A stretch of 64,000 nucleotides of DNA from Octopus vulgaris (lineage: Eukaryota): contig OX597815.1 of the NCBI GenBank assembly GCA_951406725.2, positions 203,980,001-204,044,000 of the forward strand. The letters run 5' to 3'. A program made the translations under genes and the position numbers. Of this stretch, positions 22,252 to 56,229 are shown piece after piece; within the stretch, counting starts at the first letter, position 1; each line of letters opens with the position of its first letter. A model generated the notes under the pieces. It did not search any database and was not told the DNA's origin. It worked only from the letters and a program-made list of their open reading frames with translations.

Positions 22252-22389
22252 TGTATATATATATATGCACATATATAAACACATATATATGTATAGAGAA
22301 ATAGATGCACACACATACATAAATATAATATATATAGAGTACGCATATAAAAGTTCCTATCTTATTATGTCGGCTACGGCATAATGATA

Positions 22390-22574
22390 ACAATTGCAGC
22401 GTGGAAGGTGTTTGTAAGCCATTTAAGAAACACACAAAAGCCGTTCACTTCACTTCAACATTTAAGTTTAATTTGTCAAAATATTTTCGTCGCTATAAGA
22501 CCGCGCTGCAATTGTTTTCGTTCCAGCACACGATCTCAGATCAAATCACTTGCTATGCAAGTACATCTCCGTAA
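22390..22574. mobile_element. Inverted HHR-family element (same family as 40608-40895) with a 12-bp TSD
   Basis: Two pieces of one element in opposite orientation; flanked by GGCATAATGATA (22378-22389) and GGCCTAATGATA (22575-22586). Confidence 0.75.
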
Positions 22575-40116: not shown

Positions 40117-40607
40117 TACGCCACCCCACCCCCACACATACACAGAATATTAAGCGAATATCACTGAGTTAGTTTTACCACAGTGAATATTATCAAGTAA
40201 AGTCACAGTGGTGCAATTATTATTTTCTTCTAAATTTTGAAATATATATTAAGTTTCAAAATGTAAGTACTTGTTGAATTAAAATAATATTCATTTGAAT
40301 ATTGGCATGGTATACGTTATCCCCAAATAATTTAAGCTATTTATATATCAAATAACGGCCATTTCTTTCTAAAAATAACAATTAATCCTCTATATAACGT
40401 ATTGATTAACTCCATATAAAGTAGCTAAACATTTTAGCATGTGTAAGCAACCGTCTATGAGCATTGTAGAAGTGATGATAAGTATTATATGAACACATAC
40501 ACACACATATTCATATACAAAGGGTATCCCCAAAAAAACCGGAATTTTGCAATATTATTTTATTCACTTAGTTTTTACATATTTACACTTTCATTGCCTT
40601 CAAAGTT

Positions 40608-40895
40608 TTACGGAGATGTACTTGCATAGCAAGTGATTTGATCTGAGATCGTGTGCTGAAACGAAAACAATTGCAGCATGGAAGGTGTTTGTAAGCCATT
40701 TAAGAAACACACAAAGGCCGTTTGATTCACTTCAACATTTAAGTTTAATTTGTGCAGCACGGATTTTTGTCAGTGAACAGGTCGCAGTCTTAAAGCGACG
40801 AAAATATTTTGACAAATTAAACTTAAATGTTGAAGTGAATCGAACGGCCTTTGTGTGCTTCTTAAATGGCTTACAAACACCTTCCACGCTGCAAT
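40608..40895. mobile_element. Fold-back HHR element with an 11-bp TSD
   Basis: Arms 40670-40753 / 40812-40895; GCCTTCAAAGT at 40596-40606 and 40897-40907. Confidence 0.85.
40766..40816 (+). ncRNA. Hammerhead ribozyme variant with a G3-C8 core
   Basis: TTTGTCA-GTGAACA-G-GTCGC agtcttaaa GCGAC-GAA-AATATT-T-TGACAAA. Confidence 0.7.
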
Positions 40896-41799
40896 AGCCT
40901 TCAAAGTATTCTTTATTTAAAGGAATGCATCAGTCCAGACACGTTTTCGACTGTTTGAAGCAGTGCTGGAACTCTTTCAAAGTTATGCCTATTAACTCCT
41001 CCATCTTTCTTTTCTTCGCTTCTTCCACATGTGCAAATTTCGTAGCACCAGCTTTCATCACCAATGATGACCTTCAAAAAAAGGTCCCGATTCATTTCCT
41101 ACTGTTCTTTCATTTTACCACACGCATTCACTCGTGACTGCTTTTGATCTTCCGTGATCAAGCGAGGCATAGATTTTACTGCGCCTTTCATTCGCAATTC
41201 CTCGCTCTAAATTCGTTGGTAGGAGCTCCTGGACACCGCAGTCATATTAACAAGTTCGTCAATTGTTCAGTGATGGTTCGCCAAGATTAGATCAGGAATT
41301 TTCAATGCTTTCATTCTCTCCGGATGTGTCGACGGTCTTCCTGAACGAGGTTGGTCTTCAAGCGACAGGTGACCATTCCTAAAGCGTGAAAACAACTTGT
41401 AAACTTGTGTTTTGATCATAGTAACATCTTTGTAAGCTGTTACAAACATGAAAACTGTTTCGGACACCATTTTCTCCAGCAGAAAACAGAATTTCACGGA
41501 AGCACGTTGTTCCTTCGTTTCAGCCATCGCAAAAATCTACGAACAAGCACTGCGAAGCGAAGTTCGCACCACGTGGCAATAGGATTACACTCAACGACAT
41601 CGGTCAGCATAATAATGATTGAGGGCTGCATCAAGTGATTTCTAGTGGCGGAGGCCTGAACTACAACGCCTTGTCCTACAGACGTTTCCAGTTAATCTTA
41701 GGTATATATACGCAAACACAAACTCACACATACGCACGTACGCACTCATTTCATTTCTTGTTATTTGCACTGTTAGTGACGCCCTGTTGCCATATATGC

Positions 41800-41864: not shown

Positions 41865-42117
41865 TTAGAGACAAAACCACTATTTTGCAAAACAAACAAG
41901 GAAAGACTTAATCAATACATAAAATTTTAATAAATAGTCATTTATTATAATAGACTATTTATTAAAATTTTATGTATTGATTAAGTCTTTCCTTGTTTGT
42001 TTTGCAAAATAGTGGTTTTGTCTCTAATAATATTTTATAATATTTTACTATAAAATTGGATTTAATCCTAAATCTGATTTTTTCCCTGTAAATTTGGATT
42101 TATTCCCTAATATTTAT

Positions 42118-43192: not shown

Positions 43193-43660
43193 TAAGGGTA
43201 GAAATTGATATTTATCAATTAAGACCAGTGGTCTAGCATATTAAAAAAGAATCCGAAGATTAAAATATTTATATATATATACCAATTAAGGACTGAACAC
43301 GAAAAGTGGACAGTCAACATGCTAGATATAGACGCCAAATCGTCATTCACCACAAAAGATTATGTTCTCAGATCAAACTCAACACAAAACCATAGCAATA
43401 AACAAGTGAAAAATATACGAAATAAAATAATTACCCATGTACTAACTTAGTTTCAGCTGCAGTTTTCCTTGCGGAAAATAACAGCTGAAACTAAGTTAGT
43501 ACATGGGTAATTATTTTATTTCGTATATTTTTCACTTGTTTATTGCTATGGTTTTGTGTTGAGTTTGATCTGAGAACATAATCTTTTGTGGTGAATGACG
43601 ATTTGGCGTCTATATCTAGCATGTTGACTGTCCACTTTTCGTGTTCAGTCCTTAATTGGT
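43186..43660. mobile_element. Fold-back element with 179-bp apparently perfect arms (43281-43459 / 43482-43660) in (TA)n
   Basis: Arms read as exact reverse complements; HHR 3' half GAA-ACTAAGTTAGT-A at the inner ends. Confidence 0.9.
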
Positions 43661-54497: not shown

Positions 54498-56229
54498 AAA
54501 TTAGTAGACTATCCAAAGAGCACATTAGTAAAAGAACACCATCTCGCCTGGAAATCCATCAAAGACCCATCAGGCAAAAATTGTGGGTCATGAATTAGAA
54601 TTAAAGGGGGATCAGCTAAGAAGCGTTTAGAAAATTGGTCAACCCATTTTAAAAACCTCCTTGGGAAGAATGCCAAAATCCCTGATAACCCCACTCTTCC
54701 AAGTGTGCCTATATCAGACACGCTGGACATCAACACCTCCCCTTTTACCATATTTGAACTAACAGCAGCTACCAAGCAACTAAAAGCCTCGAAAGCATTT
54801 GGTCCCGACAACATCCCAGCTGTAATTTGGAAGGATGATAGATTTCACACACTTTTGCTCAACCTCTGCAACCACACACTTTCCACCTTTGTCGCTCCAA
54901 AGATTTGGCACCAATCTCAAATCATTCCAATACCCAAAAAAGGCGATTTATCCCTCGTCACCAACTACAGGGGTATATCTCTAATGTCAATTGCTGCAAA
55001 ACTGTACAACAAACTGATCCTAAATCGTCTTGTCCTTTTTGTTGAACCTTTGCTCCGAAAGAACCAAAATGGATTCAGACATGGGCGCTCAACGCTGAGC
55101 CAGATACTATGCCTACGCAGACTTATTGAAGAATCAAAAGCATTTAATCGCGATCTTGCAGTGGTATTTGTAGACTTTTCTAAAGCGTTCGATTCTCTAT
55201 ATAGGTACAAGATGTTTGAAATCCTTAAGCTCTATGGGATACCAGACAAAATCATTTCTGCCATCAAGGTCCTCTACACAGATACGTCTTCAACCATCTT
55301 AACCCCTGACGGAGAAACATCATCTTTCTCAATCAAAGCCGGAATACTGCAGGGAGACACACTCGCCCCATTTCTTTTCATCATTGTTGTTGATTATGTG
55401 CTACGTATGTCAGTTGATATCATCTCTGGCAAGGGCTTTGAAATATAACCAAGAAGAAGTTCCAGACACCCAGCTGAGTACTTGACAGATACTGACTTTG
55501 CTGACGACATCGCTCTTATCAGTGATTCTCTCTCCAATGCCCAGTCTCTTTTACAATCTCTTGAACAAGCCTCAAATTGTGTAGGTCTTTACCTCAATGA
55601 GGCCAAAACTGAATACATAAACAAGTGCCTGTCCAACAGTGATTGCATCATCCACACTCTCAACAGTGCACCTTTAAATATGGTTTCTGATTATAAATAT
55701 CTTGGGTCATACATATCATCATCTGGAAAAGACTTTCTAACTAGAAAGTGTATGGCCTGGTCAGCCTGTAATGACATGCATAAGATCTGGTCATCAAATA
55801 TAAGTAGAGACTTCAAACTTGAAATATTCAAAGCCACAGTCGAACCAATTCTACTATATGGCTCAGAAACCTGGACGTTATCAAAGAAGCTTGAGAGGCG
55901 GTTGGATGGAACCTACACTCGCCTCCTTATGAGAGCTCAAAATCTCTCGTGGAAGCGCCATCCAACCAAAATGCAAATATATGGGAAACTACCACCTGTG
56001 TCATCTCTTGTGAAAGGTAGGAGAGTCCAGTTTGCTGGACATTGTTGTAGAGCTGAAAAGCCATCTACTCGCAATACCAGAGGGCGCACACTCTCCTACC
56101 CTGATGTAATCTCCAGGGATACAGGCATCCAGCAACAGGACCTCCGTAATGCCATGATGGACCGTGAAGTCTGGCGTAGCATGGTAAATTCCATTGTCTC
56201 GACCACGGTCGAACAATGATGATGAATGA
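54498..56229 (+). mobile_element. RTE-clade LINE, 5'-truncated, relatively young
   Basis: RT motifs YRGISL, QNGFR, FVDFSKAFDS, GILQGDTLAP, DFADD, YKYLGS; (TGA)n tail; candidate TSD TGTGTATGTGT at 54487 and 56230. Confidence 0.92.
54705..56219 (+). pseudogene. RTE reverse transcriptase, one frame with a single premature stop (55446-55448)
   Basis: ORFs 54705-55448 and 55482-56219 are in the same frame. Confidence 0.88.

Follow-up and report, generated by a model that had tools for sequence, protein, structure and literature searches.

Organization of the locus

The window (the whole 64-kb stretch of DNA that was analysed) contains a degenerate mariner relic whose last transposase codons are interrupted by an insert of 290 nt in length (40607-40896). 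The insert is built of two arms of a Penelope-like element (PLE) family in head-to-head orientation and carries a predicted hammerhead fold. The features of the locus are as follows, with unit positions counted along the PLE pseudo-LTR unit.

22383..22574, no strand assigned: second fold-back of the same PLE family, with a different junction and without the core strand, flanked by a 12-bp duplication with one mismatch
40517..41705, minus strand: degenerate mariner relic that received the insert, with approximate ends; transposase begins at 41527 (Mos1-type HTH_48)
40596..40606, plus strand: target-site duplication, left copy, 11 bp, single in other mariner copies
40607..40669, minus strand: one-sided PLE pseudo-LTR tail, unit 145-206, encoding part of the first 30 codons of the parent ORF
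40670..40753, minus strand: inverted arm, unit 61-144, 96% identical with the right arm; mirror image of the parent start codon at 40699
40754..40896, plus strand: direct arm, unit about 2-144, terminating at the short 3' end of the family
40766..40816, plus strand: predicted minimal type I hammerhead fold (motif scan and folding)
40773..40780, plus strand: core strand G3 U4 G5 A6 A7 C8 A9, followed by an additional G ahead of G10.1
40866..40896, plus strand: start of the parent PLE ORF (ATG at 40866), interrupted by the arm end; tandem junctions in L302 and L305
40897..40907, plus strand: target-site duplication, right copy, exact match to the left copy

The 11-mer GCCTTCAAAGT is present exactly twice in the 64-kb window, at 40596 and 40897, in agreement with the original prediction that it flanks the whole fold-back inside the mariner relic. 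Of 19 other mariner copies, the search pattern recovered 10 that could be aligned at the site, and all 10 carry the 11-mer once (exactly in 5); the duplication is therefore genuine and not a property of mariner itself. The insert, described as a palindrome, is not a symmetric one: 84 bp are paired at 96%, a 58-nt spacer between them holds the hammerhead, and an unpaired tail of 63 nt is found on the left side only. The arms meet at a 1-nt microhomology (T 40753). Base 98C occurs in both window arms and in none of the others in a set of 261 arms (2/261 in total), which fits the earlier proposal that the inversion originated in a single event. Either one template or a later arm-to-arm conversion could account for the shared 98C, and both arms were likely made in one insertion event. 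An independent fold-back of the same PLE family lies in another copy of the same mariner, ~35 nt from the window site (L009). Elsewhere in the window we noted an unrelated AT-rich inverted repeat at 41892-42000 (54-nt arms, 96% complementary, 1-nt spacer), another hairpin near 43403-43539, and broken reverse-transcriptase frames of a LINE-like element at 54705-56219 (labelled by eye from the translation).

A predicted hammerhead with an exchanged 3-8 pair

The fold comprises stem I (TTTGTCA/TGACAAA, 7 bp, 40766-72/40810-16), stem II (GTCGC/GCGAC, 5 bp, 40781-85/40795-99), GAAA at 40800-03 and the palindromic stem III AATATT at 40803-40808, the three stems being as the original prediction had described them, with the predicted cut at 40809/40810 and UUU as the cleavage triplet. 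Stems I and II, G10.1-C11.1, GAAA, U16.1, H17 and the short palindromic stem III match hammerhead features, whereas the core, GUGAACA, does not match the CUGANGA consensus letters. That positions 3 and 8 are exchanged was borne out by GTGAACA at 40773-40779; the earlier description of the core was right in its letters but overlooked an extra G (40780) between A9 and G10.1, which brings the core strand to 8 nt. The inner end of the left arm mirrors 40812, 2 nt downstream of the predicted cut, as had been noted before. Scanning with positions 3, 8 and 9 left free returned this as the sole site in the window, and 20 block shuffles gave 0.15 loose matches per shuffle, none of them with stems of 5 and 7 bp. 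Rfam gave no hammerhead match at the site at E up to 10, the only models there being hairpin-driven miRNA models below gathering scores, and no hammerhead among the 150 matches listed of 188 over the window. In folding, the probability of stem I fell from ~0.9 to 0.01 once the left arm was included. With the 3' strand of stem I predicted to be taken up by the left arm, the window copy is probably inactive.

The parent Penelope-like element

The parent was traced by walking upstream from long copies of the family, where a GIY-YIG frame lies ~1 kb upstream of the hammerhead on the same strand. One such locus (L267) contains an open frame of 1025 aa in which RT motifs were recognized by eye, with a CX3CX2C linker (CQSNCAVC) and, at the C terminus, a GIY-YIG nuclease scoring above cut-off with PF01541; the RVT_1 profile gave no score on L267 and stayed below cut-off on P0001, and the 5' end of L267 is interrupted by an inversion. 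In 26 of the 30 loci nearest the nuclease query the core lies ~1 kb past the stop, and all 26 are G3-C8. At tandem junctions (L302, L304, L305, L309, L314 and L315) the unit runs into the ORF start, the ATG being that at 40866, and in L302 and L305 the sequence continues from the ATG into the RT ORF. Because the unit runs into the RT ORF in this way, the insert is, as judged from its sequence, the 3' end of a PLE pseudo-LTR, present as two head-to-head 5'-truncated ends, one with the 63-nt tail. The original prediction thus correctly recognized a fold-back insertion but not its identity as a standard PLE pseudo-LTR insertion, a layout that 33 of 35 inverted family loci share.

A CX2-5CxxC linker before a C-terminal GIY-YIG defines Neptune and Nematis (PMC8557442), and the Cys linker of L267 points to one of these two clades. 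At L008:1440-1500 and L305:1138-1170, sequence resembling a branch point and a splice acceptor terminates immediately 5' of the unit, and many copies begin within a few bases of this point. The place may hold an intron or the start of a transcript, and the contigs examined at this intron-like end contained no consistent spliced exon.

Family layout and origin of the fold-back

A sample of 88 loci was taken from the first listed places on contig C1 after two overlapping loci were dropped; its pattern contains a young-subfamily base, so that it is biased to the younger subfamily. Passengers inflate family counts, since 29 of the 88 loci (L063, L079 and 27 more) are one fold-back with identical junction and flanks, amplified inside another repeat. 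The remaining 59 loci are independent. Among them 35 are inverted, and 33 of these 35 combine one short arm (ending at or before unit 151, mostly at 144-150) with one tailed arm (197-206). Microsatellites flank 38 of the 59 loci, a 9-14-bp duplication is found at 16 of the other 21, and 10 of the 12 inverted loci outside microsatellites show a 12-14-bp duplication. In a few fold-backs the arms differ in loop type or at position 8, indicating that not every fold-back was made from a single template.

The long inverted arms, their duplication and the one fold-back junction that recurs in 29 of 88 loci might be taken to suggest a MITE-like DNA element, or a single copy that was rearranged later. 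However, the flanks shared by those 29 loci indicate that they ride in another repeat, all other junctions differ, and the arms are unequal and run into the PLE ORF in longer copies, so we regard this explanation as highly implausible. The position of the window junction raises another one, namely that self-cleavage set it, the left arm having been copied from cleaved RNA whose 5' end was the cut site. The window arm does end 2 nt from that site, and among the 100 listed family ends in unit 54-61 the most frequent is the first base after the cut, with 25 (hand count). Of these 25, 8 use stem I microhomology, and 10 further listed ends at 57 use the TTTGACAAA palindrome; when such microhomology junctions are left out, the mode amounts to 17/82 (p 0.024, computed without a microhomology null). 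By contrast, there is no raw excess, with 162 ends in unit 54-61 against 198 in 66-73 and 168 in 44-51. The control windows are rich in small deletions (about 43/100 listed, hand count), whose removal leaves about 113 ends, and the test window comes close to ~113 once the 18/100 junctions attributable to stem I or to the TTTGACAAA palindrome are taken out. Furthermore, inner ends elsewhere span the whole unit, and the window arm ends at unit 61 rather than 59. A junction set by cleavage is thus quite improbable, and the end mode at the cut site is a hint from sequence positions.

Because inverted truncated copies and one-sided tails have been published for PLE insertions (PMC8557442) and are the norm in this family, the window fold-back is ordinary PLE behaviour and unsurprising. 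The protein of the anole PLE cuts both strands and extends them, starting at two internal sites (PMC11167929), and these two bodies of work lead us to propose two-ended priming. The parent GIY-YIG nuclease would cut AT-rich DNA with a stagger of 11-14 nt, and both ends would prime reverse transcription at two internal start sites within the ORF 5' end. Start sites at unit about 144-150 and 202-206 would yield a short arm and a tailed one; microhomology would then join the two short cDNAs, with fill-in leaving the target duplication. Head-to-tail tandem units each with a hammerhead, the layout of a non-LTR retrozyme, are not found at the locus, which is head-to-head with one core. Another locus (L185:1855-3235) has a retrozyme-like layout, in which at least 8 hammerhead units, each of ~173 nt, follow one another in tandem with (TA)n between them; this could allow dimer cleavage.

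Core states in the family and its relatives

It is the 3-8 pair that holds the hammerhead's general acid in place. When positions 3, 7 and 8 were left free, the core pattern gave 7244 matches genome-wide, comprising 6609 G3-C8, 227 G3-G8 and 183 G3-A8 or G3-U8 copies and 0 C3-G8. G3-C8 is thus the family state, and the pairing that the original prediction took to be preserved is Watson-Crick in those 6609 copies but mismatched in the 227 G3-G8 ones. In four sequencing runs, each coded as a separate organism (one with only 3 contigs), no variant at or above 5% was found at position 3 or 8. Loop II differs between the subfamilies, while the core and stems are constant except for a wobble-compatible A-to-G change in stem I. 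G3-G8 copies outnumber G3-A8 plus G3-U8 copies (227 vs 183), match transition mutants in frequency and were observed above neutral expectation (L390-L419). Some fold-backs carry G8 in both arms, which indicates that mismatched G3-G8 templates were probably copied too, as far as sequence can tell; in others the arms disagree, one having G8 and the other C8. G3-G8 is also partly linked to a loop variant (13/43 vs 9/100, p 0.002, hand counts among the copies listed). That G3-G8 is an old-subfamily intermediate was first hinted at by 21 of 27 arms, an idea weakened by a G8 share of ~3% both in the old subfamily (about 77/2350, extrapolated from 43 of 100 listed) and overall (227/7019). Because CUGANGA descriptors and Rfam miss thousands of these motifs, genomic hammerhead counts are too low.

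A sister family in the same genome (55-57% aa, support 100/99 in a tree built without named reference elements) has a homologous hammerhead with C3-G8 in 34/34 copies, the same extra G, and a stem II in which one pair is altered on both sides (A-U in place of G-C). Its core has C at position 9, where A is normally invariant in hammerheads; going by this core, the clade tolerates departures from the consensus. The sister family is very young, with many 1312-aa frames (L294:58 and 4653, hammerhead CUGAUGC), and L316 also has C9. Since the sister family and the next relative, L317 (weaker support, 84/91), are both C3-G8, the G3-C8 state would most simply be derived from C3-G8. An unconstrained hammerhead scan of 74 related metagenome loci and 4 loci of this genome gave 24 distinct motifs, 23 of them complementary at 3-8 (15 C-G, 7 U-A and 1 G-C, with two of the U-A entries being one probably chance site parsed twice) and one of them A-G, against 0.6 matches in shuffles; G-C was confined to the family of the window. 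A distant PLE relative has a hammerhead-like motif with an A3-G8 mismatch (L378:1736). The extra G recurs in L316, L317, L321, L326 and the sister family. A general GIY-YIG search led to a third PLE family of this genome, which has U3-A8 in 19/30 loci (the scan required pairing) and is not the parent; these loci (L037, L042 and 17 more of L031-L060) have 781-aa frames and hammerheads without the extra base. Because relatives hold C3-G8 (the sister family) or C3-G8 or U3-A8 (more distant ones) against G3-C8 here, the sequences argue that the 3-8 pair covaries in nature. They support the motif well as a homologue of the hammerhead, and moderately as one that still works, because G3-C8 is one evolutionary event to which high copy number adds no independent support.

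Does the reversed pair still cut?

In the anole PLE, cleavage requires protein, and a C3G/G8C double mutant partly restores it, while insertion in vitro can dispense with cleavage (PMC11167929). For a laboratory G3-C8 variant, activity is lower when position 17 is C than when it is G (PMC3884650), which suggests by analogy that U17 is permissive in the window family; G3 may be tolerated next to U17 because a G3-C17 trap is avoided. In our folding, G3 was paired with U17 (wobble) at a probability of 0.65, and nearest-neighbour energies favoured a non-catalytic dimer (-30.0) over a double hammerhead (-25.4). The extra base between 9 and 10.1 is a G, outside the published consensus H. A G at this position reportedly harmed a viroid hammerhead.

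These unfavourable features, that is the extra G, the UUU triplet and the dimer energy, raise the possibility that the hammerhead is a dead relic in which drift had fixed both G3 and C8 in a founder element, the pairing being coincidental and the element moving without cleavage. The excess of G3-G8 over G3-A8 plus G3-U8, its partial tie to the loop variant and the dispensability of cleavage for insertion in vitro (PMC11167929) are consistent with such a relic. However, loop II changes whereas the remaining core positions and the two stems are preserved in young and old subfamilies alike, 3-8 is complementary in 23/24 related motifs, and a random second change would restore pairing only ~1 in 3 at best. 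Therefore, we consider a relic unlikely. At the other extreme, the family might represent a natural active hammerhead whose 3-8 pair was reversed via a mismatched, dead intermediate, with the G3-G8 copies as its traces and the cut-site 5' ends as a record of cleavage in vivo. Such an intermediate would be survivable because PLE insertion does not need cleavage, and PLE families with three different cores, C3-G8, U3-A8 and G3-C8, would then coexist in one genome; the sequences make this a tentative proposal, about which we are doubtful. The reading that we favour as reasonably likely combines head-to-head truncated PLE 3' ends, probably made in one insertion, with a G3-C8 hammerhead that is predicted to misfold here. 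On the branch to the window family, G3-C8 would have arisen from C3-G8 with the 3-8 pair kept. The hammerhead in the parent RNA probably still cuts weakly, and its folding would need a second copy (via AAUAUU) or the protein of the element.

Comparison with known systems

In the literature searched, whose coverage is incomplete so that key papers could hold one, we found no natural G3-C8 hammerhead but only laboratory mutants (PMC11167929, PMC3884650 and PMC8495972), and G3-C8 is unnamed in the portions consulted of PMC6765202, PMC6155905, PMC6962438, PMC2920678 and bioRxiv 10.64898/2026.07.22.740005. The natural G3-C8 core variant is thus apparently undescribed in a comparison with literature; repeat libraries (Repbase, Dfam) may already catalogue the element. 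A family fixed for the reversed pair, with a C3-G8 sister whose stems are homologous, represents a natural test of the 3-8 pair, and the same two families also test what PLE hammerheads are for.

The minimal hammerheads found in the PLE pseudo-LTRs of metazoans (Cervera and de la Pena 2014, PMC4209133) resemble the window motif in the type I fold, G10.1-C11.1, the extra base between 9 and 10.1, the short palindromic stem III, and their place at the end of the element with pairs on opposite strands. They are C3-G8 or U3-A8 with H as the extra base, whereas the window family has G3-C8, an extra G and a 7-bp stem I. The insertions of EN+ PLEs (Craig et al. 2021, PMC8557442) are alike in the inverted truncated copy, the tail at one end and the microsatellite bias, and Neptune and Nematis share the Cys linker before the C-terminal GIY-YIG. 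By contrast, tails are about 56-62 nt in the window family against 30-40 in that work, and thousands of insertions of the window family comprise nothing but the last 200 nt. Anole Poseidon PAc (Frangieh et al. 2024, PMC11167929) is similar in having two 3' ends inside the ORF 5' end and a hammerhead beside the start codon, and its laboratory double mutant has the core of the window family. However, PAc itself is C3-G8 and belongs to the Penelope/Poseidon clade, and its start codon lies inside stem II instead of 56 nt past the cut site. Finally, natural U3-A8 hammerheads (Perreault et al. 2011, PMC3088659; also PMC4209133) are a published case of natural 3-8 covariation like the one described here. 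U3-A8 is separated from C3-G8 by two transitions via a wobble pair, whereas G3-C8 takes two transversions via a mismatch.
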